Below, piece by piece: positions 48,872-62,970 of a DNA stretch of 64,000 bases. Source of the stretch: a virus; the IMG/VR virus record IMGVR_UViG_3300043429_000467. One strand, written 5' to 3'. A program made the translations under genes and the position numbers. The notes beneath the pieces are model-generated. The model saw only the letters and a list, made by a program, of their open reading frames with translations, did no database searches and was not told the DNA's origin. Numbering within the stretch: the first letter of the stretch is position 1; the number at the start of each line of letters is the position of its first letter.

Positions 48872-49312
48872 ATGAAAATATTAATATTTGCTATATGTCT
48901 ATTACTATGTGGTAGTGCATATGCTACCGAATTAGTGCACGAGTTTTTTTCACCAGCCTTTTCAGGTAATGGTTATTCAACTCATATATTAACCATTGAG
49001 CAAATTGAGTCTCAGCGTAAACAAAAAATTAAAGATGAACAGAAAGCGGCTGAGACTAAAGCTGAATTAGCCGCTAAACAAACAAATCTTGCTAAGTTTT
49101 TAGTGAATGTTGAGTCTAGAATATATGCTCAATTATCTAAGCAACTTGCAGATGAAATGTTTGCCGAAGGTGGTGCTGATTCCGGTGAAATGAATTTTCA
49201 AGGAACTAACATATCATGGTACAAAACAGGAAGTGATGTAACCTTAACTATTCTTGAAGATAACGGTAATAGAACCGAAGTTACTGTGCCGATAGCAGGA
49301 TTCTCATTTTAA
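48872..49312 (+). CDS. csgF: CsgF-like curli assembly protein (secreted)
   Basis: Signal peptide, then ELVHEFFSPAFSGNGYSTHILT, which parallels the E. coli CsgF N-terminus [22 protein letters not shown]. Stop overlaps the csgG start (TAATG). Confidence 0.55.
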   Translation: MKILIFAICLLLCGSAYATELVHEFFSPAFSGNGYSTHILTIEQIESQRKQKIKDEQKAAETKAELAAKQTNLAKFLVNVESRIYAQLSKQLADEMFAEGGADSGEMNFQGTNISWYKTGSDVTLTILEDNGNRTEVTVPIAGFSF

Positions 49313-50091
49313 TGATTCGTTTATTGATACTAATATTCGTTTTGTCAGGATGTGCTAACGTTCATATGAATGCGGCAAAAGAAGAACCTGTCAAGATAGA
49401 AGCTAGAAAAAAGATTGTTGATGCTTTACCTGAATTGGATGGACCACCGATTCCTATCGCAGTGTATTCGTTCGCAGATAAGACAGGTCAAAAGAAGTCA
49501 TCAGATAATCTGGCATTGTTTAGTACCGCAGTAACGCAAGGTGCAGAAGTGTTTCTAATCAAAGCGTTACAAGATAGTAAGAATTGGTTTAAAGTAGTAG
49601 AAAGGGTGGGACTTGATAATCTTATTAAAGAAAGACAGTTGATAAGAAATCAAAGAGAAGTATATGAAGGTAAAGAAGCAAAGCCATTAAAACCAATGAT
49701 GGTTGCTGGTGTAATGATAGAAGGAGGTATCATTGGATATGATACTAACATCAGGTCAGGTGGTAATGGTGCTAGATTATTAGGTATTGGTGTTTCACAG
49801 CAATATAGAGTAGATGAAATTGTAATCTCTATTAGATTGGTGAATGTCAATTCGGGTGAAGTAATGTTAACTAACGCAGTATCCAAAACGATTTACAGTA
49901 CTCAACATAACTTAGGTATCATGAAGTTTGTTGATTCAGGTACTAAGTCGATTGAGTTTGAAAATGGAGTTGCACTTAATGAACCTACTACATTCGCAGT
50001 AAGAGTTGCGATTGAACAAGCGGTTTATGAATTGATAATAGATGGAGAAAAGAAAGGTTATTGGAAATTTAAAAAGGAAAAACAGCAATGA
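49312..50091 (+). CDS. csgG: CsgG curli secretion channel lipoprotein
   Basis: Lipobox LSGC. IPIAVYSFADKTGQ...FSTAVTQGAEVFLIKALQDS...ERVGLDNLIKERQLIR...MIEGGIIGYDTNIRSGGNGARLLGIGVSQQYRVDEIVISIRLVNVNSGEV aligns along its length with E. coli CsgG (FVSVYNIQDETGQ...FSTAVPQSATAMLVTALKDS...ERQGLQNLLNERKIIR...MVEGSIIGYESNVKSGGVGARYFGIGADTQYQLDQIAVNLRVVNVSTGEI). Confidence 0.85.
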   Translation: MIRLLILIFVLSGCANVHMNAAKEEPVKIEARKKIVDALPELDGPPIPIAVYSFADKTGQKKSSDNLALFSTAVTQGAEVFLIKALQDSKNWFKVVERVGLDNLIKERQLIRNQREVYEGKEAKPLKPMMVAGVMIEGGIIGYDTNIRSGGNGARLLGIGVSQQYRVDEIVISIRLVNVNSGEVMLTNAVSKTIYSTQHNLGIMKFVDSGTKSIEFENGVALNEPTTFAVRVAIEQAVYELIIDGEKKGYWKFKKEKQQ

Positions 50092-50675
50092 AAAAAATAG
50101 CATTAATCTTTATGATGATAATGCTTAGTAATGTATATGCCGCAGAAATTTATATTGAACAGTCAGGAAGTAGTTCTACTGTCAATATAAATCAAGAAGG
50201 TATAGGTAATATTGTAGGTGATTCACTGAATCCGCTTTATATTGGCGGTGGTTCGAATAACGTTGATATCGACCAAATCGGTGATAATAACAACCTTCAA
50301 GGTGTTGTAAATGGTGCAGGAACAGCAACCACAGTAACAACTAATGGTTCAGGTAATATTCAAATTATTAATTGTGGTACAACAACATCAGCAGGATGTT
50401 CATCATCAGTAATCAAACAAGTAGTTACTGGAAGTGATAACACTATAACTCAAGATTTAGGTACTGGTGCTAATCATAACAGTGAGATTACGATTACTGG
50501 AAGTGATAACGCAGTGACTCATACTAGCACAAATGCTGGTGCAAGTACTGTAGATATTTCAGTGAGTGGTAATCAAAATACTGTGGGAGTAACACAAAGT
50601 GGACTTACAGCGAAAACTGTATCAGTTAGTTCTACTGGTAATAGCAATAATATTACTATCAACCAGTCAGAATAG
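50088..50675 (+). CDS. Curlin-repeat (CsgA/CsgB-like) secreted amyloid subunit
   Basis: Signal peptide plus at least six imperfect repeats of the S-x5-Q-x-G-x-x-N type (TVNINQEGIGN, NVDIDQIGDNN, NTITQDLGTGAN, NTVGVTQSG, NNITINQS). Start overlaps the csgG stop. Confidence 0.65.
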   Translation: MKKIALIFMMIMLSNVYAAEIYIEQSGSSSTVNINQEGIGNIVGDSLNPLYIGGGSNNVDIDQIGDNNNLQGVVNGAGTATTVTTNGSGNIQIINCGTTTSAGCSSSVIKQVVTGSDNTITQDLGTGANHNSEITITGSDNAVTHTSTNAGASTVDISVSGNQNTVGVTQSGLTAKTVSVSSTGNSNNITINQSE

Positions 50676-51696
50676 TTATTCAGCAATCGGTAAAGTTTCA
50701 GAACAAACAGGTCCTACCGAGATTGTCCGACAAAGCAAATCAATAGAGAGTAAATTAAACTCTTCTATTGAGATGCTTGACACTGTGGTAACCGCAAAGT
50801 CTAAAGTGTTACTAACGTTCGAAGATGATACAACAGTTAAGATTACTGAACAATCTAAATTAATTATCGATGATTTTGTTTATGATAATAAAAAAGGTGC
50901 TGGTAAATTAGCATTAAAAGTTGCTTTGGGTACGGCAAGATATGCTTCAGGACAGATAGCTAAGAGTAACCCACAATCAGTTAACATACAGACACCAACA
51001 GCAACAATTGCAGTTCGTGGTACTGATTTTAGTATGACTGTAGATGAATTAGGTAGAAGTTTGGTGATGCTTTTACCTTCTTGTGATAAGAAAGCGTGTG
51101 TAACAGGTGCTATTGAAGTGAGTACCGATGCAGGTTCTGTTTTTATGAATCAAGCATATCAAACAACTGTAGTTGCTACACGAGACCAAGCACCAACTAA
51201 GCCTGTGATTGTTAATATAGACCAGGCAAATATTAATAACTTGTTGATTGTTGCACCTCCAAAACAAGTAGAAGAACAAAAGATACAGCAAGATAATAAA
51301 ACTGTATTAGATTATAACTTTTTAGATAGAGATTTATTAGAGTATAACAAACTAGATGAAGATGAATTAAAAAGGTTTAGTTTACTTGATATGAATTTTT
51401 TATCTTTTGATTTGTTACCAAATATTTTGGATGAATCGAATAGGTCATTAGCGGCAAGTCAAGAAGCAATGCTAGAAGAAAAAACTTTGCTTCCTGGATA
51501 TAATGAAGCATCAGGATTGAAATATGGTATAGATGAAAATGGTAAGTTGATTTTAACAAAGATTGCTAATCATACTGCACAAGTGACAGTTGATAAAGAG
51601 CATGATGTGATTGTTAGTATTACGCAGGATAGTTCACCACTGATACAAAAAGTGAATGGTGGTGGAACAACAACAATTAACATTAATCAGAAATAG
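50599..51696 (+). CDS. Secreted FecR-domain-like protein (365 aa)
   Basis: Signal peptide MDLQRKLYQLVLLVIAIILLSTSQNSYSA. Central TPTATIAVRGTDFSMTVDE resembles FecR/DUF4974-type beta-sandwich domains. 5' end overlaps the curlin gene by 77 nt in another frame. Confidence 0.4.
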   Translation: MDLQRKLYQLVLLVIAIILLSTSQNSYSAIGKVSEQTGPTEIVRQSKSIESKLNSSIEMLDTVVTAKSKVLLTFEDDTTVKITEQSKLIIDDFVYDNKKGAGKLALKVALGTARYASGQIAKSNPQSVNIQTPTATIAVRGTDFSMTVDELGRSLVMLLPSCDKKACVTGAIEVSTDAGSVFMNQAYQTTVVATRDQAPTKPVIVNIDQANINNLLIVAPPKQVEEQKIQQDNKTVLDYNFLDRDLLEYNKLDEDELKRFSLLDMNFLSFDLLPNILDESNRSLAASQEAMLEEKTLLPGYNEASGLKYGIDENGKLILTKIANHTAQVTVDKEHDVIVSITQDSSPLIQKVNGGGTTTININQK

Positions 51697-51704
51697 GAGT
51701 AAAA

Positions 51705-53699
51705 ATGCTAAAGCAATCTTTATTAACAGTGGCATTAATCGGTGTGTTTGGTACAGTTCAATCAGCACCTTTAGTATTAGAAGGCGATTACATCAAAATT
51801 GGTGTAAACGAAGTAGGTACATTAGGTTCTAATGGTAATACATCACCTGGTGTTCTATATGATAACACCGGCACAGGAACATTCAACACAGCATATGACT
51901 ACTTAACTCCTGGTTCACCATTCGAAGGATGGACTGTTCAATATAATGGAACAGAATCAGTGATGAATAACAATGCTCAATGGTCATCACCACAAATGAC
52001 AGGTACACTAACAAGTTACAATGGTGTTGCTTACAATGGTACAACATTCGACAATCGAGCAGTTTGGGAAGGTACTTCAGTAAACTTTGATTTGTTACAT
52101 GATGTTCGCTTCAATGATAATCAAAAGTTTGTGGATATTACATCAATATTGACAGCTAAAGTTGCAATGACTGATTTATACTTCGCAAGATATACAGACC
52201 CTGACGCACGTGCGGCCGCTGGTGACAGTTCTGCTACAACAAACACATTAGGATTCTCACCTATTCCAGTAACTCAAGTTGTATTTTCTGAAGCTTTAGT
52301 ATCTAGATATGCACTTGGTTTATACTCAGCGGCACCTAACGTAGGCGCAGGTGTTAGTTCAGGTTGGTCAACAGACGCAACAACATATTACACCGGTGCA
52401 AATGATGGTAATGGTGACTATACGATAGGTTTAGGCTTCCACGTACCAACAGTAGCAATTGGTGACATCGTTACCTTTAATTATGCATACATCTTTGGAC
52501 CTAGCACATTATCTGCTGGTTCTACTGCTGTTACTTCAGGTGCTGGTGGTGGCGTTCCTGGTGAAGTTCCTGGTTGTGTGTCTGATTGTACATTACCACC
52601 TGACCCTAGTTCAACTCCTACATTAGTATCAACAGACGTTGAGTTATCTAGTGTATCTGTAGTTCATAGAGGTGATACTGATACTGCAATCGAATACGAC
52701 TATGCAACATCAAAAGGTTCTAAAGTATTAGCTGTAAATCAAACTACAACTACAACTTTAACAACTCCAGTAACAACTACAGTAGCTTCTACTTCAACTA
52801 CAGTTGAAACATATAGTGATTCATCAGTAGTTCGTACAGTTGGTGCAACTACAACGACATCAAGTACAGTTAATGACGTAACAGAATCAGAATATGATAC
52901 TGCATTCTCAACAAGAATTGACCAATTTGATAGATTGTCAGCATCAAATGAAATGTACAATAGACAGTTAAATAGTAATATCATGGATAGATTTGTAGCA
53001 GGTCAAACTGGTGCTTATTTAAACATCGATAGTCAAACTAGCAATACACAAGATACCTATAAACAAAAAGCAAATCGTTTTGGTGTTGGAGTAGACAAGT
53101 CTATTACTGATAATTTGAATGTAGGTTTTCAATACAATAACATTTCATCAAGATTATCTGGAACTAATGCAGGTGGACGTTTAGATAAAAATCATGTTGG
53201 TGCATATGCTGTATACACTAAAAACAATTGGGTGTTTGTAAACGATATTGGTTTCTCATATAACGATTACAAAACAAATCACAGTTTACCTGAATTGAAT
53301 GCAACAAATAGTTCAAGTGCTAATGGATATGACTTATGGGTTAGCGGTAGAGCATATACTCCATCACTAAAAGGATTCAGACCATATGCTGGTATTAGAA
53401 TTGAAAACAACAACTTAGATTCAGCTAAAGATAAAGGTACTGAATTGACTGCTGTTAGTTATAGTAAAATTAATTCAACAAATACAACAGGTGAATATGG
53501 TATCAGATACGATTATCAATACAAAAAAGTTAACTTGTTAGCTGAAGTTGGTTCTAATTCTGATAATATCAAACTATACAAAGCAGGTATTAACTTTATT
53601 CCAAATGAAAAAGTTATTGGTGGTGTATCATTTACGCAACAAGAATATGATAATATCAAGAATGATGTGATTTCAGCTAATATAAAAGTTAATTTCTAA
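51705..53699 (+). CDS. Autotransporter-like outer-membrane protein (passenger, Thr-rich linker, C-terminal beta-barrel)
   Basis: Signal peptide; Thr-rich linker TTTTLTTPVTTTVASTSTT; C-terminal alternating-hydrophobic strands ending ...ISANIKVNF (aromatic terminal residue typical of OMP barrels). Confidence 0.5.
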   Translation: MLKQSLLTVALIGVFGTVQSAPLVLEGDYIKIGVNEVGTLGSNGNTSPGVLYDNTGTGTFNTAYDYLTPGSPFEGWTVQYNGTESVMNNNAQWSSPQMTGTLTSYNGVAYNGTTFDNRAVWEGTSVNFDLLHDVRFNDNQKFVDITSILTAKVAMTDLYFARYTDPDARAAAGDSSATTNTLGFSPIPVTQVVFSEALVSRYALGLYSAAPNVGAGVSSGWSTDATTYYTGANDGNGDYTIGLGFHVPTVAIGDIVTFNYAYIFGPSTLSAGSTAVTSGAGGGVPGEVPGCVSDCTLPPDPSSTPTLVSTDVELSSVSVVHRGDTDTAIEYDYATSKGSKVLAVNQTTTTTLTTPVTTTVASTSTTVETYSDSSVVRTVGATTTTSSTVNDVTESEYDTAFSTRIDQFDRLSASNEMYNRQLNSNIMDRFVAGQTGAYLNIDSQTSNTQDTYKQKANRFGVGVDKSITDNLNVGFQYNNISSRLSGTNAGGRLDKNHVGAYAVYTKNNWVFVNDIGFSYNDYKTNHSLPELNATNSSSANGYDLWVSGRAYTPSLKGFRPYAGIRIENNNLDSAKDKGTELTAVSYSKINSTNTTGEYGIRYDYQYKKVNLLAEVGSNSDNIKLYKAGINFIPNEKVIGGVSFTQQEYDNIKNDVISANIKVNF

Positions 53700-53723
53700 T
53701 TTTTAACGACTAAATAAGTAATC

Positions 53724-55742
53724 ATGAAAAAATTACTTAATCCATGGTTAGCGTTAATAACGTTAACTTTATTAGTAGTAATCAGATTGGCAGACTTCAG
53801 TTTTATCGAGTCTGTCAGATTGCGATATTTTGACACATTAATTACAAGTGAATCTGTAAAGGTTTCTGAACAAATTCACGTTGTAAATATAGATGATAAG
53901 TCCATAGAAAAGTATGGACAATTTCCGTTTCCTAGAGGTGATTATGCGAGCATTATTGATTCTTTGTATGACCGTGGCGCTGGGCTGGTTGTTTTTAACT
54001 TGTTTCTACCTGATAGTGATAGGTTTGGACAAGATGGTAGACTTACTTCTACCCTTAACAAACACCCTGTAGTATTCCCACAAGCTGGTTCTACTGATAA
54101 ACAAAAAGCTATACCATTTAGACCTGGTGTTTCTGAGATTGGAACACCAGCTTCTAATTTTGCAGTATCTTATCCAAGTATTTTAACTAACATAAAACAA
54201 ATTAATGAAAATGCCGCTGGCATTGGAGTAGTGAATGTATTACCTGAAATTGATGGTGTTGTCCGTCGTGTACCTATGGTCGTCTCAAGCAATGGCGTAT
54301 TGTTTCCCTCAATCACACTTGAAACTTTGCGAGTTGCTTCCGGAGACCCAAGTTTCCAAGTCAAGTCAACAGATTACGGTATCGAGGCCGTCAGAATACC
54401 TAGCTTCAGAAAAGTTGAAACTGACTCTTTCGGACGAGTTTGGATTGACTGGTCCACTAAGCCTACCGAACACAGTCTTGTTGATTTACCCAAGTCCTTT
54501 GATGGGACAATCGTCATTGTTGGACTCAGTGCTAAAGGACTCAACAATCCTGTCGCAACAGCAAGAGGAGAGGTCTATCCGCATTATTTACAGGCAAGCG
54601 TTCTAGATACACTTGTATCAGGTAAAAATATTAGTAGACCTGACTGGTCAAATGGTGTAGAATTATTATTGACAGTTATTCTGTCTGTGATATCTATATT
54701 ATTAACTAGGTGGAAATATGGCTTTATTGCTTTTCTTGCTATCATTGCTGGTGTTGTGGGTGCTTCTAAAGGTGCTTTTGTTTACTATTCGTATCTTCTT
54801 GATTGTATTTTTCCTGTGTTTTGCTTGGGTATTGTTTATTTACATGTGTATACAGTTAAGTTCGTAAGCGAATTAAATCAAAAACTTCAAATCAAAAAAC
54901 AATTTGGCACATATCTGTCGCCAGCACTTGTTGAAAAACTTCAAAAGAATCCTGAATTATTAAGACTTGGTGGTGAGTCTCGTGAACTATCTATTATGTT
55001 CACCGATGTTAGAGGCTTCACTACAATCTCAGAACACTATGGTAAAGATGTTCAAGGATTAACTCAAATTATGAATCGCTACATGACAGCGATGACCGCA
55101 AAGATTATTGAGAACAACGGAACACTGGATAAATACATTGGTGATGCTCAGATGGCTTTCTGGAATGCACCACTTGATGAGCCTAACCACGCTAAATTGG
55201 CATTGAAAACGGCTCTAGAAATGATGGAGAGTTTAGATGCGTTTAATAAAGAGATTCAAAAAGAGGGTATTCCGGCGTTTGGTATGGGACTCGGGATTAA
55301 TACTGGCACTGTTGTCGTTGGTAATATGGGTTCTAGCCAACGCTTTGATTACACCTGCTTAGGTGATGCTGTTAACTTAGCGTCACGTTTAGAAGGACAA
55401 TCGAAACCTTATGGTGTTAAAATCATATTAGGTTCGTTAACTGCTGAACAAGTTAAAGATGAATATCCAGTTGTTGAGTTAGATTGTATTGCTGTTAAAG
55501 GTAAAACAGAAGGTGTTAAGATTTATACTCCTTGTGTTTATCAAGAAGAGCATTATAAGTTACACAAAAAATATCTAAAATCATACTATGATGGTATTTG
55601 GGATTCAGCAATTTTCTTTGCTAAAGATTTAGAGATTAATGGTCCTACAGAATTACGTCAATATTATCATAACATGATAGAGAGAATGCTTGAAGGTAAA
55701 CCTGAAGATTGGGATGGTACGTATAGAGCAACTAGCAAGTAA
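53724..55742 (+). CDS. CHASE2 sensor-domain class III adenylate/guanylate cyclase (membrane-bound)
   Basis: N-terminal TM, periplasmic CHASE2-like region, 3-4 TM helices, then a cyclase homology domain (FTDVRGFTTISE...KYIGDAQMAFWNAP...GINTGTVVVGNMGS...YTCLGDAVNLASRLE) with both metal-binding Asp residues. Confidence 0.8.
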   Translation: MKKLLNPWLALITLTLLVVIRLADFSFIESVRLRYFDTLITSESVKVSEQIHVVNIDDKSIEKYGQFPFPRGDYASIIDSLYDRGAGLVVFNLFLPDSDRFGQDGRLTSTLNKHPVVFPQAGSTDKQKAIPFRPGVSEIGTPASNFAVSYPSILTNIKQINENAAGIGVVNVLPEIDGVVRRVPMVVSSNGVLFPSITLETLRVASGDPSFQVKSTDYGIEAVRIPSFRKVETDSFGRVWIDWSTKPTEHSLVDLPKSFDGTIVIVGLSAKGLNNPVATARGEVYPHYLQASVLDTLVSGKNISRPDWSNGVELLLTVILSVISILLTRWKYGFIAFLAIIAGVVGASKGAFVYYSYLLDCIFPVFCLGIVYLHVYTVKFVSELNQKLQIKKQFGTYLSPALVEKLQKNPELLRLGGESRELSIMFTDVRGFTTISEHYGKDVQGLTQIMNRYMTAMTAKIIENNGTLDKYIGDAQMAFWNAPLDEPNHAKLALKTALEMMESLDAFNKEIQKEGIPAFGMGLGINTGTVVVGNMGSSQRFDYTCLGDAVNLASRLEGQSKPYGVKIILGSLTAEQVKDEYPVVELDCIAVKGKTEGVKIYTPCVYQEEHYKLHKKYLKSYYDGIWDSAIFFAKDLEINGPTELRQYYHNMIERMLEGKPEDWDGTYRATSK

Positions 55743-56251: not shown

Positions 56252-56274
56252 ATTAATCTTTCAATTGGTGGGCC

Positions 56275-56352
56275 CCGTGGGATTCGAACCCACTGTCTAT
56301 CGGTTATGAGCCGATTGCTTATACCAGATTTAAGCTTGAGGCCCGAATATGG
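56275..56352 (-). tRNA. tRNA-Met or Ile2 (anticodon CAU)
   Basis: Hand-folded cloverleaf: CCA encoded; T-arm GTGGG/attcgaa/CCCAC on the plus strand; anticodon loop ctCATaa. Confidence 0.6.
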
Positions 56353-56358
56353 AGCGTC

Positions 56359-56433
56359 CTGCGGGAATCGAACCCGCCTCTTCAGCTTGGAAGGCTGTAA
56401 TAATACCACTATACCAAGAACGCATAACGGATG
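56359..56433 (-). tRNA. tRNA-Gly (UCC)
   Basis: Cloverleaf with T-arm GCGGG/aatcgaa/CCCGC; anticodon loop ctTCCaa. Confidence 0.6.
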
Positions 56434-56700
56434 AAAAAGCAAGTAAAAGACGGGACAATGTACATTAGAAGGGCTATGCCACTAAACTCTAAGACAATCA
56501 ACAAACCACAATAATCAAAACCTGCATATTAGTTAGAAACAAAACACAAAGTCGTCGTTTATAATACTAACACACGCAGAACGATTTCAGGTCGTTTTGG
56601 ATTTGGCGTCCATACTGGAGAGAAATTAATCTCATCTTAGTCAATTCTCATCTCTTTTTCATGCCGAGTAGATTTTTTGAAGAAAACCTACCAGAAAAAC

Positions 56701-57267
56701 TTAAAGAATACCTGCTTTAGTTAGTGTTTCCACTACGTTATCAGGTAACTCAATCTCAGTCTTAATATTCAATTCAAGAATCTTATCTTGAATTTTTTGC
56801 TTCTCTTTTTTGAATGTAGAAACATTCTTTTTAGCAATAGAAATATTACCTTCAGTACATACGGTAGTAGTTACTTCATCGGCTCTACCATATACACTTC
56901 TAGTAGTATCTGTATTGTTTTTAATCTTATCAAGCTTACCTTCGACAATATTAATAGCTGTCGCTGGTGCTGAAGTTGCTATGTTTTGATGTAGATGAAT
57001 AGTCTTTTCAATCAATGCAACATCACTTAACAAATCATTAATTTGATTTGCGTTTGCTTTACCAACTAGTTTTCTAATCGTATACAAACTAACATACAAA
57101 TCATTATTTACCTCAAAAGCTGTTAAATAATCTTTGTTTGCTTTATCAAACTTTTCAGATACATTTTCAAACTCATTGAATGTAACCATATTGTTTAGCT
57201 GATTATTCTTAATAGTATCAAGAATAGTTTGTTGTAATGCATTTGCTTTTCTAAGCGTAATTTTCAT
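56701..57267 (-). CDS. Hypothetical protein (188 aa) inside the tRNA region
   Basis: Intact ORF; predicted helical/coiled. Confidence 0.3.
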   Translation of the reverse strand: MKITLRKANALQQTILDTIKNNQLNNMVTFNEFENVSEKFDKANKDYLTAFEVNNDLYVSLYTIRKLVGKANANQINDLLSDVALIEKTIHLHQNIATSAPATAINIVEGKLDKIKNNTDTTRSVYGRADEVTTTVCTEGNISIAKKNVSTFKKEKQKIQDKILELNIKTEIELPDNVVETLTKAGIL

Positions 57268-57275
57268 AATAACTC

Positions 57276-57461
57276 CTAATGTGCTAAAATCTTAAAGCAC
57301 TTAAATTTAATAACTTTTGTTGTACCTGAAGCCATCTTCTTAGCTTCTTCACCTGCGGCAACACATTCTTGTTGTGAAAAGAAACCTGGTACATTAGTTA
57401 ATGCCATCGAATCAGTATCACTCATCATACCTGCATGTGCAAACAATAATAAAACCCACAT
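57276..57461 (-). CDS. Small secreted hypothetical protein (61 aa)
   Basis: Signal-peptide-like N-terminus. Confidence 0.25.
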   Translation of the reverse strand: MWVLLLFAHAGMMSDTDSMALTNVPGFFSQQECVAAGEEAKKMASGTTKVIKFKCFKILAH

Positions 57462-57483
57462 AATAAATCTCCAATAATAAGAA

Positions 57484-57559
57484 TGGTGTCCCCGGAGAGA
57501 ATCGAACTCCCGTATAATGCTTTAGAAGAGCACTGCGTCATCCACTACGCTACGAGGAC
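57484..57559 (-). tRNA. tRNA-Arg (UCU)
   Basis: Cloverleaf folded by hand; anticodon loop ctTCTaa. Confidence 0.55.
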
Positions 57560-57594
57560 ATTTGAAAGCATATTACTATACTTTACTTTAAATG

Positions 57595-58155
57595 TCAAAT
57601 ATATCTACTATGTTTAGGTAGTTTAGACTTTAAGTATTCCATTTGGTCAGCAACTACGTTTCTATTCTGTAGAATAAAGTGTTCCCATCTACAAGGTCTG
57701 TAAGGTAAAAACAACAATAACATATTAGCTTCTTCAGGTGTTCTATCTGCTTTCTTAGAGTTACAGTGCTTACATGAAGACACTGAGTTTTCCCAAGCAT
57801 TAGAACCACCACGACTTCTTGGATGTACGTGGTCTCTAGTCAAATCTTTTGATTCAAAGAATAGTCCACAGTAAGCACATAAGTTATGGTCTCGTCTGAA
57901 TAACAAAAAGTTACCGTGAGCATTCACAGTTTCTTTAGTATGCAATCTTCGAGTTTCACCTCTTACTGAGATGATAGACTTGATACTGATTTGAGATTGT
58001 AAACCATTCTTTTGATAGCCGCCATGAAACACTTGAAACTCAGTACCTAAGTCCCAAACAACTTTATCTGAGGCGTAGTAATGCACCGCTTCTTCGGGCA
58101 TCAGCCACTTGAAGGGATTACCTGCAATATCTAGTCCTAGTATACGTGCTTCCAT
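57595..58155 (-). CDS. HNH homing-type endonuclease
   Basis: CAYCGLFF...DHVHPRSRGGSNAWENSVSSCKHCNSKK (HNH motif with flanking Cys pairs). Inserted between tRNA genes. Confidence 0.75.
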   Translation of the reverse strand: MEARILGLDIAGNPFKWLMPEEAVHYYASDKVVWDLGTEFQVFHGGYQKNGLQSQISIKSIISVRGETRRLHTKETVNAHGNFLLFRRDHNLCAYCGLFFESKDLTRDHVHPRSRGGSNAWENSVSSCKHCNSKKADRTPEEANMLLLFLPYRPCRWEHFILQNRNVVADQMEYLKSKLPKHSRYI

Positions 58156-58204
58156 GATAGTCTCAAAAAAATAATTTAGATGTTATATGTATATATCTTT
58201 AAAA

Positions 58205-58281
58205 TTGGTGCGGAAGGAGGGAGTCGAACCCTCAAAACTCGGATTTTAAGTCCGATACGTATGCCAATTCCGTCACATCCG
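58205..58281 (-). tRNA. tRNA with anticodon UAA (Leu-type anticodon) but short 5-nt variable region
   Basis: Clean T-arm GAGGG/agtcgaa/CCCTC, 5-bp anticodon stem TCGGA/TCCGA, loop ctTAAaa. Total 77 nt, class I architecture. Confidence 0.5.
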
Positions 58282-58361
58282 CTTATTAAATTTAGAACGT
58301 TGCTGTTTCTGAACCCTAGTAGTAACAATAAAGTTAAAAAATTACAGCAACGCTCTAAAAC

Positions 58362-58438
58362 TGGTAGAAGTAGTGAGATTCGAACTCACGATAGGTTGCG
58401 TATGAAGCAACTGCATTAAGCCACTATGCTACACTTCT
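58362..58438 (-). tRNA. tRNA-Met or Ile2 (CAU), second copy
   Basis: T-arm GTGAG/attcgaa/CTCAC; anticodon stem GTTGC/GCAAC; loop ttCATac. Confidence 0.6.
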
Positions 58439-58650
58439 GTTAAAACTTTTTGCTTCATAAATTGGCAGTATGCTTTATAATCTTCATGCATTGCCTTTTG
58501 TATTAACTCATCAGTGCTTTTATAAAAAATATGTCCAACTAGTTTTAATCTAATAGACTCATATAAACAGTCCATCTTCAATTCTTCAGATGGAGGATAT
58601 TCTTTATAAAACTCTTCATAAGTTAACATAATAATCCTTTGGGGTGTCAT
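58429..58650 (-). CDS. Small hypothetical protein (73 aa)
   Basis: Intact ORF between tRNAs. Confidence 0.25.
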   Translation of the reverse strand: MTPQRIIMLTYEEFYKEYPPSEELKMDCLYESIRLKLVGHIFYKSTDELIQKAMHEDYKAYCQFMKQKVLTEV

Positions 58651-58718
58651 ACGAGATTTGAACTCGTGCTATAACATTCACAGTGTTAGGTGCTAACCAC
58701 TACACTAATGACACCATT
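58640..58718 (-). tRNA. tRNA-His (GUG)
   Basis: Anticodon loop ctGTGaa; discriminator C and extra 5' G(-1), consistent with His identity. Confidence 0.65.
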
Positions 58719-58721
58719 AAA

Positions 58722-58795
58722 TGGCTCCGGTGGAGGGAGTCGAACCCCCGCCAAGAGGTTTGGAGTCTCTTGTGCTACCGTAACACTTCACCGGA
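58722..58795 (-). tRNA. tRNA-Trp (CCA)
   Basis: Anticodon loop ctCCAaa; acceptor stem perfectly complementary. Confidence 0.55.
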
Positions 58796-58802
58796 ATAAA
58801 AC

Positions 58803-58879
58803 TGGAGGATAGAGTGAGATTCGAACTCACGAACCACTGCTTTGCAGGCAGGTACCTTAGACCACTCGGTCATCTATCC
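58803..58879 (-). tRNA. tRNA-Cys (GCA)
   Basis: T-arm GTGAG/attcgaa/CTCAC; anticodon loop ctGCAaa. Confidence 0.55.
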
Positions 58880-59101
58880 TTAACAACAACCTGCATCTGG
58901 AAAAATAAATACTTTTTCTTCAGCAGAATCATCAGTATTATATTCAATAAATGTGTTAATTTCTTCTTGTGCAAATGTAACACCTTCATTCTCTGCTAAA
59001 AACGTAGCATCAGCTAGATTATCAGCAACTACAACTAACCCGCCATCTGAATGGTAATTGTCAGTTAGATTAGCAATCCTTGTCCAAATAAAAACTTTCA
59101 T
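58880..59101 (-). CDS. Small hypothetical protein (73 aa)
   Basis: Intact ORF. Confidence 0.25.
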   Translation of the reverse strand: MKVFIWTRIANLTDNYHSDGGLVVVADNLADATFLAENEGVTFAQEEINTFIEYNTDDSAEEKVFIFPDAGCC

Positions 59102-59104
59102 AAT

Positions 59105-59521
59105 CTACTCCAATGGAAATAATTCTTTAAATTTTGCAGTCATTACATCAATTAAAACTGGATGACGATAATCGTAGTCATCTTCAATTTCTAAATTAAT
59201 TACTTGTTTAAAATCAAAATCAAATGTCCAATTATCCATATCATTAAACATTTTGTTTTGCATTGTATTGATATGTAATTGTTGAATACTATCCATCACT
59301 AGAATAACATCAGCCCAAATAATCAAAGCTTCAGTCACAGGAATAATCGCATATTCTGCACTAGTTCCTGCACATCTAGTATTGAAGTTCCATGGTTCTG
59401 AACTAAGAATATGTGCCGCTGTAGGACTTCTTAGACATCCTGCTGAACATACAGTCAATACTTTCTTATGCTTTCCTTGATAAGCATTGAATATCACCCC
59501 AAGTTGGTTTCTTTTTAGCAT
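59105..59521 (-). CDS. Low-molecular-weight phosphotyrosine phosphatase / ArsC-family fold protein (tentative)
   Basis: VLTVCSAGCLRSPTAAHIL resembles the P-loop CX5R(S/T) signature of the LMW-PTP family. Confidence 0.4.
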   Translation of the reverse strand: MLKRNQLGVIFNAYQGKHKKVLTVCSAGCLRSPTAAHILSSEPWNFNTRCAGTSAEYAIIPVTEALIIWADVILVMDSIQQLHINTMQNKMFNDMDNWTFDFDFKQVINLEIEDDYDYRHPVLIDVMTAKFKELFPLE

Positions 59522-59690
59522 TCTTACTTTCCTTAATAAAAATCTTTAGTGTTCTACCTTCATCTTGAAGACTAAACTCTAATGATTCTACATTCCAATT
59601 AGTATAACTACGACCTTTACCATCAATCACTTCAACTCTAGTGACATCATAATAAGGCTCTTCAAATCTATTAATATGCGGATTGGTCAT
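59466..59690 (-). CDS. Small hypothetical protein (74 aa; 5' end overlaps neighbour)
   Basis: ORF overlapping the phosphatase-like gene by 56 nt; true start uncertain. Confidence 0.2.
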   Translation of the reverse strand: MTNPHINRFEEPYYDVTRVEVIDGKGRSYTNWNVESLEFSLQDEGRTLKIFIKESKNAKKKPTWGDIQCLSRKA

Positions 59691-60243
59691 GGAATGTAAA
59701 TCCTTTATTCTTAAATTTTTGTAATCGCCACTCTTTAATAAATTTGATATCAGTATTATAGATTAGCTTCTTATTCATACATGCGTCATACTGTTCTCGT
59801 GAGATAAACAACTTATCTTGCATCAACAAATAGTAAGGTTTGCAATGAACAAAGTCAAAATGATTTCGAACATCATTAGGATGTCCTGCAAACGTGAAGA
59901 TGAATGAGTCATCAGTCTTCATGGTAATCGCATTAGCGGTAATCATTTTACCATTATTATCTGCGTGTTCCATGTAATTGATATTGACTTCTTTAATCTC
60001 ATCATCATAATTCTTTTCTATGTGTTCTTTAAATGTTACGGCAGAATCTTGGTCATAGAAATAAAAGTCCCAATCTTTAGGTATTTCGCCCCTTAATAGA
60101 GAACCGATTGCACCACCTGAAAGATACACGGCATCATTTTCATACAGCATTTTCCACCAATCAAAATTCTTCAATGCTTCCATATGGAATTTAATGGTGT
60201 CTTTTACATCTTTAATTTTATTCTTTTCGTTTTCAGTAAACAT
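59671..60243 (-). CDS. Polymerase-beta-type nucleotidyltransferase-fold protein (tentative)
   Basis: LSGGAIGSLLRGEIPKDWDFYFYD fits a G[SG]-x8-DxD NTase signature. Confidence 0.35.
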   Translation of the reverse strand: MFTENEKNKIKDVKDTIKFHMEALKNFDWWKMLYENDAVYLSGGAIGSLLRGEIPKDWDFYFYDQDSAVTFKEHIEKNYDDEIKEVNINYMEHADNNGKMITANAITMKTDDSFIFTFAGHPNDVRNHFDFVHCKPYYLLMQDKLFISREQYDACMNKKLIYNTDIKFIKEWRLQKFKNKGFTFHDQSAY

Positions 60244-60307
60244 ACAATCACCTAATCATAATATAAAATAATCATACATCAAAATTAATTTAATGTAAAG
60301 CATTATT

Positions 60308-60383
60308 TGGTAGGACCCCTCGGAATCGAACCGAGTCCTCAGCGTCTTCAGCGCCACGTACTGACCACATATACGTGAGTCCT
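60308..60383 (-). tRNA. tRNA-Phe (GAA)
   Basis: T-arm CTCGG/aatcgaa/CCGAG; anticodon loop ctGAAga; stem has two G-U pairs. Confidence 0.55.
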
Positions 60384-60385
60384 AT

Positions 60386-60461
60386 TGGTACTCGAAGAGA
60401 GAATCGAACTCTCATTTGACGATTATCGGTCGTCTGTTCTAAACCGTTGAACTATTCGAGC
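60386..60461 (-). tRNA. tRNA-Ile (GAU)
   Basis: T-arm GAGAG/aatcgaa/CTCTC; anticodon stem GACGA/TCGTC; loop ccGATaa. Confidence 0.6.
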
Positions 60462-60462
60462 A

Positions 60463-60963
60463 TTAATAAACAACATTATAGCAACAATTAAGTACTACTC
60501 TCTCAATATTGCTATTCTTAACTTGTTCTACTTTATGATAATACCAAGGCATCATATTAACAAAAATACATGTTCCATATTTTGGATATACTGTGAACAC
60601 TTCTTCTTGAGCATTCTTGAAACTGATAGAACCACCAGTTTCTTCGTTCATATCATTAAAGTATACTAAAGCAAACAGATTCCAACCTTCTCTTAAATCG
60701 TTGTGCCAATCACAACTAGTTGGTTCTGTACCTTTCCATAATTCTGTTTTTCCAACATCTACAGATTGAAACGACTTGTTTAATATTGTAACAAGCTTTT
60801 CATTAATAGATTTTATAGCGTTATCTAAATTGTCATCATCTTTAGGTTCATATACATTGTTTAAATGTTCGTCTTTCCATATGATTAATTTTAAATCAAC
60901 ATCCGATAACAACTCAGAAATGTCGATTTGATGATAACCTTTTTCTATTAAATCATTTATCAT
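60463..60963 (-). CDS. 2OG-Fe(II) oxygenase-like protein (tentative)
   Basis: WHNDLREG (HxD) and downstream YYHKVE...ERVV, with spacing compatible with a prolyl-hydroxylase-type facial triad. Confidence 0.35.
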   Translation of the reverse strand: MINDLIEKGYHQIDISELLSDVDLKLIIWKDEHLNNVYEPKDDDNLDNAIKSINEKLVTILNKSFQSVDVGKTELWKGTEPTSCDWHNDLREGWNLFALVYFNDMNEETGGSISFKNAQEEVFTVYPKYGTCIFVNMMPWYYHKVEQVKNSNIERVVLNCCYNVVY

Positions 60964-60975
60964 AATCTTCCTTTA

Positions 60976-61051
60976 TTGGACCCCTCTGCAAGAATCGAAC
61001 TTGCATCATAACGTTCGTAGCGTTGTATTCTAATCCATTGAACTAAAAGGG
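60976..61051 (-). tRNA. tRNA-Arg (ACG)
   Basis: T-arm GCAAG/aatcgaa/CTTGC; anticodon loop ctACGaa. Confidence 0.5.
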
Positions 61052-61057
61052 GTAAAA

Positions 61058-61132
61058 CTGGCGACTCGTGGGGGAATCGAACCCCCGTATCCTACTAGAC
61101 AGGCAGGCATAATAACCATTATATCAACGAGT
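61058..61132 (-). tRNA. tRNA-Asp (GUC)
   Basis: T-arm GGGGG/aatcgaa/CCCCC; anticodon loop ctGTCta. Confidence 0.6.
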
Positions 61133-61183
61133 CAAAAAACTTTCAAGCAATTGTTTTCAGCAATCGATGAAAGCCGTGTTACA

Positions 61184-61258
61184 TGGTGCCCCGTGACGGA
61201 TTCGAACCGCCATAACCTGATTACAAAACAGGCATAATAGCCTTTATATGAACAGGGC
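61184..61258 (-). tRNA. tRNA-Thr (UGU)
   Basis: Anticodon loop ttTGTaa; acceptor with one G-U. Confidence 0.55.
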
Positions 61259-61263
61259 AAAAC

Positions 61264-61340
61264 TGGTACTCAGTGAAGGAATCGAACCTTCCTAAGCTAT
61301 CTTGTAAGGATAGTCTCTAGCCAATCGAGTCAACTGAGTA
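61264..61340 (-). tRNA. tRNA-Val (UAC)
   Basis: T-arm GAAGG/aatcgaa/CCTTC; anticodon stem CTATC/GATAG; loop ctTACaa. Confidence 0.55.
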
Positions 61341-61344
61341 TAAT

Positions 61345-61419
61345 TGGTGGAATAGGCGAGACTCGAACTCGCAACAGTCTGCTTGCAAAGCAGGTGAACT
61401 CCCATTGTTCTACTACCCC
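61345..61419 (-). tRNA. tRNA-Ala (UGC)
   Basis: Anticodon loop ttTGCaa; acceptor stem carries a G3-U70 pair, the Ala identity element. Confidence 0.6.
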
Positions 61420-61425
61420 AAAACT

Positions 61426-61500
61426 TGGTCTCTCAGGTAGGACTCGAACCTACATCGTCTACGCCCCAAACGTAGTGACCAACCTCTGGCCCACTGAGAG
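61426..61500 (-). tRNA. tRNA-Pro (UGG)
   Basis: Anticodon stem CTACG/CGTAG; loop ttTGGgg. Confidence 0.6.
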
Positions 61501-61507
61501 TTAAAAC

Positions 61508-61584
61508 TGGCTGTGTACCTAGGATTCGAACCTAGCGCATCTTGATTAACAGTCAAGCCTTCTCACCTAGAGAAGTCGTACACA
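61508..61584 (-). tRNA. tRNA-Asn (GUU)
   Basis: T-arm CTAGG/attcgaa/CCTAG; anticodon stem CTTGA/TCAAG; loop ctGTTaa; perfect acceptor. Confidence 0.65.
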
Positions 61585-61592
61585 ATAAAACT

Positions 61593-61669
61593 TGGTACCC
61601 TTAGAAGGATTCGAACCTTCAAATTTCTGTTTCTAAGACAGACTCCTTTACCAATTTGGACATAAGGGC
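61593..61669 (-). tRNA. tRNA with anticodon UAG (Leu-type anticodon) but short variable region
   Basis: T-arm GAAGG/attcgaa/CCTTC; anticodon stem TCTGT/ACAGA; loop ctTAGaa; 77 nt, class I architecture. Confidence 0.5.
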
Positions 61670-61677
61670 ATTAAACT

Positions 61678-61767
61678 TGGCGGAAGTTTAGGGAATCGAA
61701 CCCTCGACGATTACTCGTTCCTACTGTTTAGCAAACAGTGCTAGTTTCCCTGACTAGATAAACTTCC
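61678..61767 (-). tRNA. tRNA-Ser (GCU), class II with long variable arm
   Basis: 90 nt; anticodon stem ACTGT/ACAGT; loop ttGCTaa; ~17-nt variable arm. Confidence 0.6.
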
Positions 61768-61837
61768 ATATTGAGCGGTTTGCCGTACTCTCCTAACCTC
61801 GAATACATTATGTTACGGCTTTCTCTCAAACTAAAAC

Positions 61838-61928
61838 TGGCGGAGGGATGGCGGAATCGAACCCCTGGCAATCTCTTGCTCGCTCTGCTTTCAAAACAGA
61901 CGCACTATCCCCGAGTGCATAACCCTCC
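61838..61928 (-). tRNA. tRNA-Ser (UGA), class II
   Basis: ~90 nt; anticodon loop ttTGAaa; variable-arm hairpin GCAA/tctc/TTGC. Confidence 0.5.
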
Positions 61929-61935
61929 ATTACTG

Positions 61936-62013
61936 ATTTGTAGTCTAGGGAATCGAACCCTAATAAAATCTAGAATACGGTGTCAATCGACACTTATTAG
62001 TCCAACCCTACAA
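61936..62013 (-). tRNA. tRNA-like element, possibly degenerate (anticodon not resolved)
   Basis: Good T-arm TAGGG/aatcgaa/CCCTA and partial acceptor complementarity (tttgtag / ctacaaa), but no encoded CCA and no canonical anticodon arm; an internal hairpin GTGTC/aatc/GACAC is present. Confidence 0.3.
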
Positions 62014-62016
62014 AAC

Positions 62017-62093
62017 TGGCAGCCGTGGTGAGATTCGAACTCACTATGTACTAGCTTCAAAGACTAGTGCACTTCCTGTCGTGCGTCACGGCA
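62017..62093 (-). tRNA. tRNA-Gln (UUG)
   Basis: T-arm GTGAG/attcgaa/CTCAC; anticodon arm ACTAG(T)/ctTTGaa/(G)CTAGT with a 6th U-G pair closing a 7-nt loop (or a 9-nt loop alternative). Confidence 0.45.
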
Positions 62094-62101
62094 ATAAATC
62101 T

Positions 62102-62176
62102 TGGTGGGAGCACAGGGACTCGAACCCTGAATGATTGATTAAAAGTCAACTGTGATAACCATTTCACCATACTCCC
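62102..62176 (-). tRNA. tRNA-Lys (UUU)
   Basis: T-arm CAGGG/actcgaa/CCCTG; anticodon loop ctTTTaa. Confidence 0.6.
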
Positions 62177-62218
62177 AAAACTTGGCTCGTTTTTATAGAG
62201 GTGAACACTCCTCATGTT

Positions 62219-62304
62219 TGGTGAGTGTTGTAGGATTCGAACCTACTAAGCACGAGGCAACTGGGTTACAGCCAGCCGAGACACTCCAACGTCCCCGAAC
62301 ACTC
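62219..62304 (-). tRNA. tRNA-Tyr (GUA), class II
   Basis: 86 nt; T-arm GTAGG/attcgaa/CCTAC; anticodon loop ctGTAac; 13-nt variable arm; perfect 7-bp acceptor (gagtgtt / aacactc). Confidence 0.6.
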
Positions 62305-62376
62305 ATTAAACCATACAGAAGCATACTGAACGACCCCAGCAACTACGTTGAAGGCGCCGAACAATACGCTTTTGTA

Positions 62377-62452
62377 TGGTACACGGTACGGGAATCGAAC
62401 CCGTCCTACTGACGTGAAAGGCCAGTGTTCTAAACCGATAAACTAACCGTGT
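62377..62452 (-). tRNA. tRNA-Glu (UUC)
   Basis: T-arm ACGGG/aatcgaa/CCCGT; anticodon loop ctTTCac; perfect acceptor. Confidence 0.6.
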
Positions 62453-62501
62453 ATATAACATCTAAATTGTTAATGAACGATAAAACTAAACTACTAAAAA
62501 C

Positions 62502-62530
62502 AAAAAACCCGACTTTTTTAGGGTCGGGTT
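62502..62530 (-). terminator. Hairpin terminator / processing structure upstream of the tRNA array
   Basis: aaaaa-ACCCGAC-tttttta-GGGTCGGGTT; a second perfect complement AACCCGACCC at 62563-62572 allows an alternative long-range pairing. Confidence 0.5.
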
Positions 62531-62970
62531 CTATAAATTTATTATGATACTCTAAACTTACAAACCCGACCCTCGTTTCTCAATCGCATAATCCCATGAG
62601 CGTGAGCCAGCATTCATCGGCTGTGCATTAAACACTGCTAATAAATTGCTCGTACTGAGATGTAAGTTTGTTTTGTTCATACGTTTATTTATACAACTTT
62701 TTTCTAAAAAATTAAAAAATTTAAAAAATACTTTTAAAATGTGTCATCCAGAAGTTTAGCATAATATGAATACAAGTAATCATTTCTACTATTCTCATGA
62801 ACCACCATATTCTATCTCGTTCAGGATGTTTCATAATTGGTTGCGGTCGAACGAATTGCACGTTGTCTCTAGCTTATGAGGCTAGCGAGTTTCTGTTACT
62901 CTACCACCGCAATATTCTTAATCAATCTTATTTATAAAAAATTATATTCTATTTATAACAGTTTGTCAAC

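Follow-up and report, generated by a model that had tools for sequence, protein, structure and literature searches.

The tRNA gene array of an uncultured phage contains two genes with leucine anticodons, UAA and UAG, and variable regions of only five nucleotides, which raises the question of what these tRNAs are charged with and whether they take part in translation at all. A preliminary description of this DNA, starting from the premise that bacterial and T4 tRNA-Leu are class II molecules whose long variable arm is a major identity element for leucyl-tRNA synthetase (LeuRS), had left three options: atypical leucine tRNAs, tRNAs charged with another amino acid, or decoys. As set out below, the leucine determinants, helix covariation and codon demand favour the first of these and speak against the other two. 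We infer from the sequence, with a probability of roughly 85%, that both genes encode functional type I (short variable loop) tRNA-Leu molecules that are expressed, leucylated and used on the ribosome. The short-armed phage tRNA-Leu is a new example of a known and conserved form, which is also found in T5-like phages and many Actinobacteria.

Genomic setting of the tRNA array

The window (the whole 64,000-nucleotide stretch of viral DNA analysed here) has a GC content of about 34% and is a piece of an uncultured T4-like myophage of marine type. In its baseplate and other proteins it shows 37-44% identity to the Pelagibacter phages HTVC008M and Mosig and the Methylophilales phage Melnitz, and a JGI metagenome contig (sample 3300047476) encodes an identical copy of one of its proteins. 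Since no close DNA relative was found in the sequenced phage collection, where a tRNA-Thr gave the sole match, the identity of the phage was set from its protein similarity to the Pelagibacter/Methylophilales myophages.

The array (Table 1) comprises 24 tRNAs called by ARAGORN, which between them cover all 20 amino acids, and one degenerate tRNA-like gene with a CAU anticodon. This coverage holds only if the tRNAs with the UAA and UAG anticodons count as leucine: in agreement with the preliminary description, ARAGORN called no class II tRNA-Leu within the window, where leucine is represented by the two class I genes only. In the same array tRNA-Ser (90 and 91 nt) and tRNA-Tyr (86 nt) are class II tRNAs with a long arm. 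The gene order Asn-Leu(UAG)-Ser-Ser-Gln-...-Tyr-Glu is common to two related contigs (L001 and L068), both of which likewise carry a class I Leu(UAG) in this place.

Table 1. Location of the two leucine tRNA genes, the array that holds them and the neighbouring features in the window
Feature	Coordinates	Strand	Evidence	Remarks
Curli-like genes through CHASE2 cyclase gene	48872-55742	plus		just upstream of the array
tRNA gene array holding both Leu genes	56266-62910	minus	ARAGORN, Rfam	
'tRNA-Met' (CAU)	56266-56344	minus		79 nt
HNH homing-type endonuclease ORF	57595-58155	minus	Pfam HNH_5 3.2e-15, HNH 6.2e-14	
tRNA-Leu(UAA), type I (class I)	58206-58282	minus	ARAGORN, Rfam	77 nt; predicted to read UUA/UUG
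2OG-Fe(II) oxygenase-family ORF	60463-60963	minus		inside the array
tRNA-Leu(UAG), type I (class I)	61593-61669	minus	ARAGORN, Rfam	77 nt; predicted to read CUN
25th tRNA-like gene (CAU)	62842-62910	minus	Rfam 49.7 bits; no ARAGORN call	

The genes around the tRNAs encode an HNH endonuclease, a 2OG-Fe(II) oxygenase, curli-like proteins and a CHASE2 cyclase, and no phage-encoded LeuRS or tRNA-modifying enzyme was found near the array within the window. The HNH ORF, which starts 50 nt downstream of tRNA-Leu(UAA), is not part of the tRNA and is possibly an agent of tRNA cassette exchange. The oxygenase-family ORF lies between tRNA-Ile and tRNA-Arg(ACG). On the opposite strand, the curli-like genes, coding for CsgF, CsgG and a curlin-repeat protein, are followed by genes for a FecR-domain protein, an unassigned 664-aa ORF and the CHASE2 adenylate/guanylate cyclase, which is also encoded by Pelagibacter and Methylophilales myophages.

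Two of the CAU-bearing genes of the array are themselves unusual. The 25th, tRNA-like gene has a 4-bp T stem, a T loop UGCAAUU that lacks TTC, a D loop without GG and the 3' end AACCA; it could be a third CAU tRNA, either degenerate or specialised. The gene at the other end of the array, nominally a tRNA-Met, scored best on the Lys profile once its anticodon was masked (42.2 bits versus 29.5 for Met). A lysidine-dependent tRNA-Ile2 is one candidate identity, some other non-Met CAU tRNA another.

Sequence and fold of the two tRNAs

ARAGORN, Rfam and direct reading of the sequence all confirm what had first been reported of the pair, namely two 77-nt tRNAs with the leucine anticodons UAA and UAG and 5-nt variable regions. 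Both lie on the minus strand, which had not been given, and the earlier coordinates stand for the UAG gene and are one base off for the UAA gene (58205-58281 in place of the location in Table 1). The UAA tRNA reads GCGGAUG UG ACG GAAUUGGCAUA CGU A UCGGA CUUAAAA UCCGA in its 5' part and GUUUU GAGGG UUCGACU CCCUC CUUCCGC A CCA in its 3' part; the corresponding parts of the UAG tRNA are GCCCUUA UG UCC AAAUUGGUAAA GGA G UCUGU CUUAGAA ACAGA and AAUUU GAAGG UUCGAAU CCUUC UAAGGGU A CCA. The Rfam model RF00005 (gathering score 29) matched both over its full length, positions 1-71 of 71, with 60.9 bits for the UAA and 68.0 bits for the UAG tRNA, and aligned the variable region as 5 nt. The variable loops, GUUUU in the UAA and AAUUU in the UAG tRNA, accordingly have five nucleotides each and no extra stem-loop.

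The perfect T arms, the 5-bp anticodon stems and the anticodon loops CUUAAAA (UAA tRNA) and CUUAGAA (UAG tRNA) could be read in the sequence just as claimed; the loops are of seven nucleotides with the leucine anticodon at positions 34-36, and both tRNAs have A73 and an encoded CCA. In the acceptor stem of the UAA tRNA there is a U6-U67 mismatch, a small correction to the earlier account. The UAG tRNA carries G1-U72 and C2-G71. In both, the D arm consists of a 3-bp stem and an 11-nt loop (GAAUUGGCAUA and AAAUUGGUAAA, respectively), which is the architecture of tRNA-Leu and not that of a generic class I tRNA.

Single-sequence folding and Rfam gave neither a long-armed fold nor a shift of the anticodon register for either tRNA; one or the other had been named as grounds for refuting the short-armed assignment. 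The minimum-free-energy fold of the UAG tRNA is exactly the cloverleaf. That of the UAA tRNA is not (z-score -0.65), and it keeps the same anticodon hairpin and has no long arm; as this single-sequence fold is uninformative, we relied on comparative evidence. A reading of UAA and UAG as nonsense-suppressor anticodons was rejected, since they pair with the sense codons UUA/UUG and CUN and not with stop codons. A 77-nt array tRNA in a related phage contig (L055 1080-1156, plus strand) has the anticodon UUA and is a putative ochre (UAA) suppressor.

Leucine determinants in tRNAs without a long arm

The premise that the long arm is a major LeuRS identity element proved wrong for bacteria. Variants of E. 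coli tRNA-Leu that lack the arm stay active, the arm being reported as dispensable, and the elements critical for E. coli LeuRS are A73, U8-A14, A15-U48, G18G19, A20a and the D/T elbow (PMC9976931), while in Aquifex deletion of the arm chiefly lowers affinity (PMC2377443). By sequence and alignment both window tRNAs have U8-A14, A15-U48, G18G19, A20a and A73, so that the check that had been proposed, of A73 and the other LeuRS elements, finds all of them present relative to the E. coli list. Alignment with E. coli leuZ and leuW, the tRNA-Leu of T5 and that of a related contig (L038) is colinear from end to end; the window tRNAs depart from these only in the arm, which a single gap of about 10 nt takes out.

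To place the pair among its relatives we fetched 80 related loci by means of the neighbouring CHASE2-cyclase protein, that is, loci not chosen on tRNA sequence, and recovered from them 17 class I and 11 class II Leu tRNAs, all distinct. U8, U48 and A73 are present in all 28, as is the D-loop series A14-A15...G18G19...A20a, which in the Leu tRNA of L001, with its one extra 5' base, is shifted by one position. The class I variable loop is exactly 5 nt in 17/17. The D-loop motif A14A15YYG18G19YA occurs in 23 of the 28 Leu tRNAs versus 2 of 315 non-Leu tRNAs. The long arm is kept in every distinct Ser (21/21) and Tyr (14/14) tRNA of the related arrays.

Bacterial TyrRS uses the variable arm. For tRNA-Ser, arm size is the major identity element (PMC9976931). 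The arm of tRNA-Leu, by contrast, would be free to disappear, LeuRS being reported to do without it, and in keeping with this the Leu tRNAs are the only ones in these arrays that have lost it; tRNA identity rules would in this manner limit structural change. As a separate observation, three related contigs (L052 20755-20846, L057 10742-10833 and L062 15661-15752) keep a 92-nt long-armed tRNA that ARAGORN calls Ile(UAU); its D arm is odd and its anticodon begins at position 31. This is possibly a class II body with a non-Leu/Ser/Tyr anticodon, the reverse anomaly, or else a mis-registered call.

We also scored the tRNA bodies on isotype profiles that ignored the anticodon and were trained without class I Leu; these assigned 18 of 22 control tRNAs correctly. 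The UAA tRNA scored best on the class II Leu profile (40.9 bits, the next being Lys with 30.7) and rose to 51.3 bits on a Leu profile with the arm trimmed from the training set. On that trimmed profile the UAG tRNA reached 29.9 bits, whereas its best non-Leu profile gave 25.2 and a Lys control scored 30.5 on the same Leu profile; nearest-neighbour scoring tied class II Leu with Arg. Only with the arm trimmed, then, does its body come out nearer to class II Leu than to the other isotypes, and weakly so. A profile of other viral class I Leu tRNAs, with the window left out and the anticodon masked, gave 59.6 bits for the UAA and 53.0 bits for the UAG tRNA, the best non-Leu tRNA of the window scoring 31.2 bits. 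Judged by these scores, the UAA tRNA has a Leu-like body, and the UAG tRNA belongs by its body to the class I Leu family.

These results bear on whether another synthetase might charge the tRNAs and so have UUR or CUN codons read as a different amino acid. LeuRS does not use the anticodon as a determinant, so that the anticodon by itself is no proof of identity (PMC9976931), mitochondrial tRNAs with a UAG anticodon are charged with Thr or Ala (PMC7609411), and the isotype profile scores do not mark the UAG tRNA as clearly Leu-like in its body. Yet both tRNAs possess the full set of Leu determinants and have no G3-U70, the Ala identity pair, and chromosomal tRNA-Leu(UAA) genes of Actinobacteria belong to the same family. 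Moreover, with no class II Leu in the array, it is the most frequent amino acid of the phage that would be recoded. We consider such mistranslation exceedingly improbable.

Conservation of the class I fold

A search pattern that combined the D loop of tRNA-Leu with a UAR anticodon, class I spacing and the T loop matched at least 120 viral contigs and, in bacterial genomes, at least 118 class I tRNA-Leu genes, counts that are biased toward class I and are lower bounds. From the matches listed and the related loci we aligned 73 diverse 77-nt viral class I Leu tRNAs, for which no gaps were needed. In this alignment 98.6% of the cloverleaf cells are paired, in a fold whose D stem has 3 bp and whose variable loop has 5 nt, and compensatory changes are seen at 20/20 pairs across all four helices. 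The covariation score was 1.03, compared with 0.24 for shuffled alignments, none of 500 of which reached the observed value, and with at most 0.20 when the partners were slid. U8, U33, A35, U48, A73 and CCA are invariant even though none of them is fixed by the search pattern, and U54, U55 and C56 of the T loop are invariant or nearly so; the conservation of A14, A15, G18, G19 and A20a is partly forced by the pattern. This combination of changing pairs and fixed residues argues that purifying selection acts on the class I fold.

The same alignment is informative regarding the suggestion that the genes are decoys, or more generally tRNA-like RNAs outside translation, be they sponges for nucleases or toxins or decaying pseudogenes. 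Phage tRNAs can indeed neutralise defence systems (PMC12673091), and the window does contain one degenerate tRNA-like gene at the edge of the array. Covariation in every helix combined with a (near-)invariant U33, A35, U48, T loop, A73 and CCA is instead what marks a translating tRNA. The viral members have leucine anticodons only (UAA, UAG, CAA and GAG; 178 distinct members among the matches listed), and, going by its GenBank note, tRNAL1 of phage BF23 works on the ribosome as a suppressor (see below). A role outside translation therefore appears very improbable.

Position 37 of the Leu(UAG) tRNAs shows a further regularity: A37 is present in 78/98 distinct class I and 6/8 distinct class II viral Leu(UAG) tRNAs (L001-L203, among the matches listed), including those of T5 and BF23 as well as the window UAG tRNA, while E. 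coli leuW has G37. The G37 of bacterial CUN-reading tRNA-Leu carries an m1G modification, which would then be absent from the phage Leu(UAG) tRNAs with A37.

Class I tRNA-Leu in bacterial chromosomes

Most of the bacterial matches listed are the only tRNA of a chromosomal locus; they come from Nocardia, Mycobacterium, Gordonia, Rhodococcus, Arthrobacter and Acidimicrobiia. Loci L204-L323, among the matches listed, include single-copy chromosomal tRNA-Leu(UAA) genes of 74-77 nt with the consensus GCCCCCRUAGCCCAAUUGGCAGAGGC..., a form widespread in Actinobacteria and Acidimicrobiia. Hence, the premise that bacterial and T4 tRNA-Leu are class II is right for T4, whose tRNA-Leu is a class II molecule of 87 nt, and does not hold for bacteria, given Streptomyces coelicolor and the class I genes counted above. 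The class I form appears to be commoner than the wording 'rare recognition mechanism' used for S. coelicolor suggests.

In that organism LeuRS leucylates the type I tRNALeu(CAA) in vitro (Fan et al. 2019, PMC6614811). The S. coelicolor enzyme does not use A73 as a determinant, and its leucine-specific domain (LSD) is adapted to the type I tRNA (PMC6614811). E. coli LeuRS, described as acting on type II only, did not charge the S. coelicolor tRNALeu(CAA) transcript (PMC6614811), implying that acceptance of a type I tRNA depends on the particular pair of LeuRS and tRNA.

Both window tRNAs have a variable loop of the subtype NTTYT. Among viral class I Leu tRNAs this subtype recurs in at least 74 distinct members, and in bacteria it occurs at multi-tRNA loci, which are arrays or prophages. 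Among the matches listed it is found in 0/73 single-tRNA bacterial loci, the loops of which are NNAGT or NKGTT. This distribution places the window genes in a phage-associated lineage distinct from the actinobacterial chromosomal one.

Phage relatives and exchange between the two classes

A blastn search of the phage collection with the UAA tRNA recovered 414 records, mostly of T5-like phages, the others including the Vibrio phage Thalassa, Aeromonas phages and the Pseudomonas phage phiPsa347, with the gene annotated as tRNA-Leu; the same search with the UAG tRNA gave no match. Identity to the annotated tRNA-Leu genes of T5-like and Vibrio phages is 80-84%. One of these relatives is tRNAL1 of BF23, a 77-nt tRNA with the anticodon UAG that is about 80% identical to the window UAA tRNA. 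According to the depositor's note in GenBank, swapping CUA in for its anticodon creates an effective amber suppressor. This implies that a class I Leu tRNA of the NTTYT subtype is charged and used in E. coli, the inserted amino acid not being named. The GenBank feature note is the only source for this result, as we found no T5/BF23 suppressor experiments in the literature searched, nor an explicit description there of class I tRNA-Leu in phages. Taken together, a conserved class I Leu in coliphages and the BF23 suppressor are in apparent conflict with the report that E. coli LeuRS is type II only (Fan et al. 2019).

At the array position of the class I gene of BF23, T5 has an 85-nt class II tRNA-Leu(UAG), and in the clade of the window an 85-nt Leu(UAG) of one contig (L038) corresponds to a 77-nt one in a close relative (L041), in both cases between Phe and Arg. 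From their positions, class I and class II Leu genes can thus be seen as replacing each other at the same place in the array, both in T5 versus BF23 and in L038 versus L041. In T5 the HNH gene hegC adjoins the class II Leu gene (L083 11023-11607); BF23 (L081 594-873) has the class I Leu and no hegC at that position. This suggests that homing endonucleases drive the exchange of tRNA cassettes.

Loss of the arm might, in addition, serve counter-defence, with the armless tRNAs escaping host or rival-phage nucleases that recognise or cut class II arms, so that leucine decoding goes on once the tRNA-Leu of the host has been destroyed, a proposal that would add to the main explanation and not replace it. 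Nucleases directed against class II variable loops do exist: Septu cleaves the variable loop of tRNA-Tyr (PMC13096335), and Retron-Eco7 likewise cuts that loop. The phage association of NTTYT, with at least 74 viral tRNAs against none of the 73 single-tRNA bacterial loci among the matches listed, would also fit. However, we found no nuclease against the tRNA-Leu arm in the literature consulted, many related phages retain class II Leu tRNAs or have both forms, and in the chromosomal tRNA-Leu of Actinobacteria the class I form exists without phage conflict. Neutral loss, tolerated as LeuRS ignores the arm, fits the same data, and selection by defence seems unlikely.

The wider proposal that joins these threads, in which the NTTYT class I tRNA-Leu is a phage-specific lineage that spreads horizontally and is swapped against class II, its arm loss having been selected by defence nucleases, is in our view just as doubtful. 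T5-like siphoviruses, Vibrio phages and the window myophage share the NTTYT form, and neighbouring homing endonucleases possibly exchange it for class II copies in the arrays. If the proposal were true, an E. coli-type LeuRS, reported to be type II only, would accept this type I design.

Codon demand and proposed function

Leucine is the commonest residue in the ORFs of the window (8.0%), its codons being UUA in 48.7%, UUA and UUG together in 66% and CUN in 34% of cases. The anticodons UAA and UAG are what wobble decoding needs for all six leucine codons. The UAA and UAG tRNAs therefore match the codon demand of the phage.

Returning to our preferred reading, that both genes are functional type I tRNA-Leu, we propose that they are transcribed within the phage tRNA array and that the bacterial-type LeuRS of the host would charge both with leucine. 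Recognition would proceed through A73 and the shape of the D/T elbow, set by U8-A14, A15-U48, the position of G18G19 and A20a, and would make use of neither the anticodon nor the variable arm. The charged tRNAs would then decode all six leucine codons for an AT-rich phage, UAA reading UUA/UUG and UAG reading CUN. As regards annotation, genes of this kind ought to be called tRNA-Leu, and a short variable loop is no ground for rejecting a phage or actinobacterial tRNA-Leu. Both the frequency of class I Leu tRNAs in phage arrays and the apparent conflict over E. coli LeuRS noted above might be of interest to tRNA specialists; neither amounts to a novel type of system.

Comparison with known leucine tRNAs

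The window tRNAs share with the class II tRNA-Leu of E. coli (leuZ and leuW), T4 and T5 the anticodons, A73, the 3-bp D stem, the 11-nt D loop and A15-U48. The D loops of E. coli are GAAUCGGUAGA in leuZ and AAAUUGGUAGA in leuW (GAAUYGGUAGA), to be compared with GAAUUGGCAUA and AAAUUGGUAAA in the window, and the G1-U72/C2-G71 of the window UAG tRNA is also found in leuZ. Unlike the window pair, with 5 nt in this region, the class II molecules are of 85-87 nt and have a variable stem-loop of 13-15 nt, as does the tRNA-Leu of L038. The animal mitochondrial tRNA-Leu(UUR) and tRNA-Leu(CUN), compared here by description, are class I without a long arm and are recognised mainly via A73 and A14 (PMC9976931); they differ in being organellar, in their relaxed and often unstable structures and in having a dedicated mitochondrial LeuRS.

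The type I tRNA-Leu of S. coelicolor and other Actinobacteria are bacterial-type tRNAs with a short variable loop, U48, A73 and the D loop CAAUUGGCAGA; they coexist with class II tRNA-Leu and a single LeuRS. In contrast to the window genes, which lie in an array and have the NTTYT loop, these are cellular genes, usually stand alone and have NNAGT or NKGTT loops. Among phages the counterparts are tRNAL1(UAG) of BF23 and many other T5-like phages (Demerecviridae) and the tRNA-Leu(UAG) of Thalassa. They too measure 77 nt, have GUUUU or AUUUU as their 5-nt variable loop, end in A73 and an encoded CCA, lie in a large tRNA array and possess the D arm xxGGAAUUGGYAUAC. They belong to siphoviruses of enterobacteria and Vibrio, unrelated to the T4-like myophage of the window, and while the T5-like gene has the anticodon UAG, its closest relative in the window has UAA.
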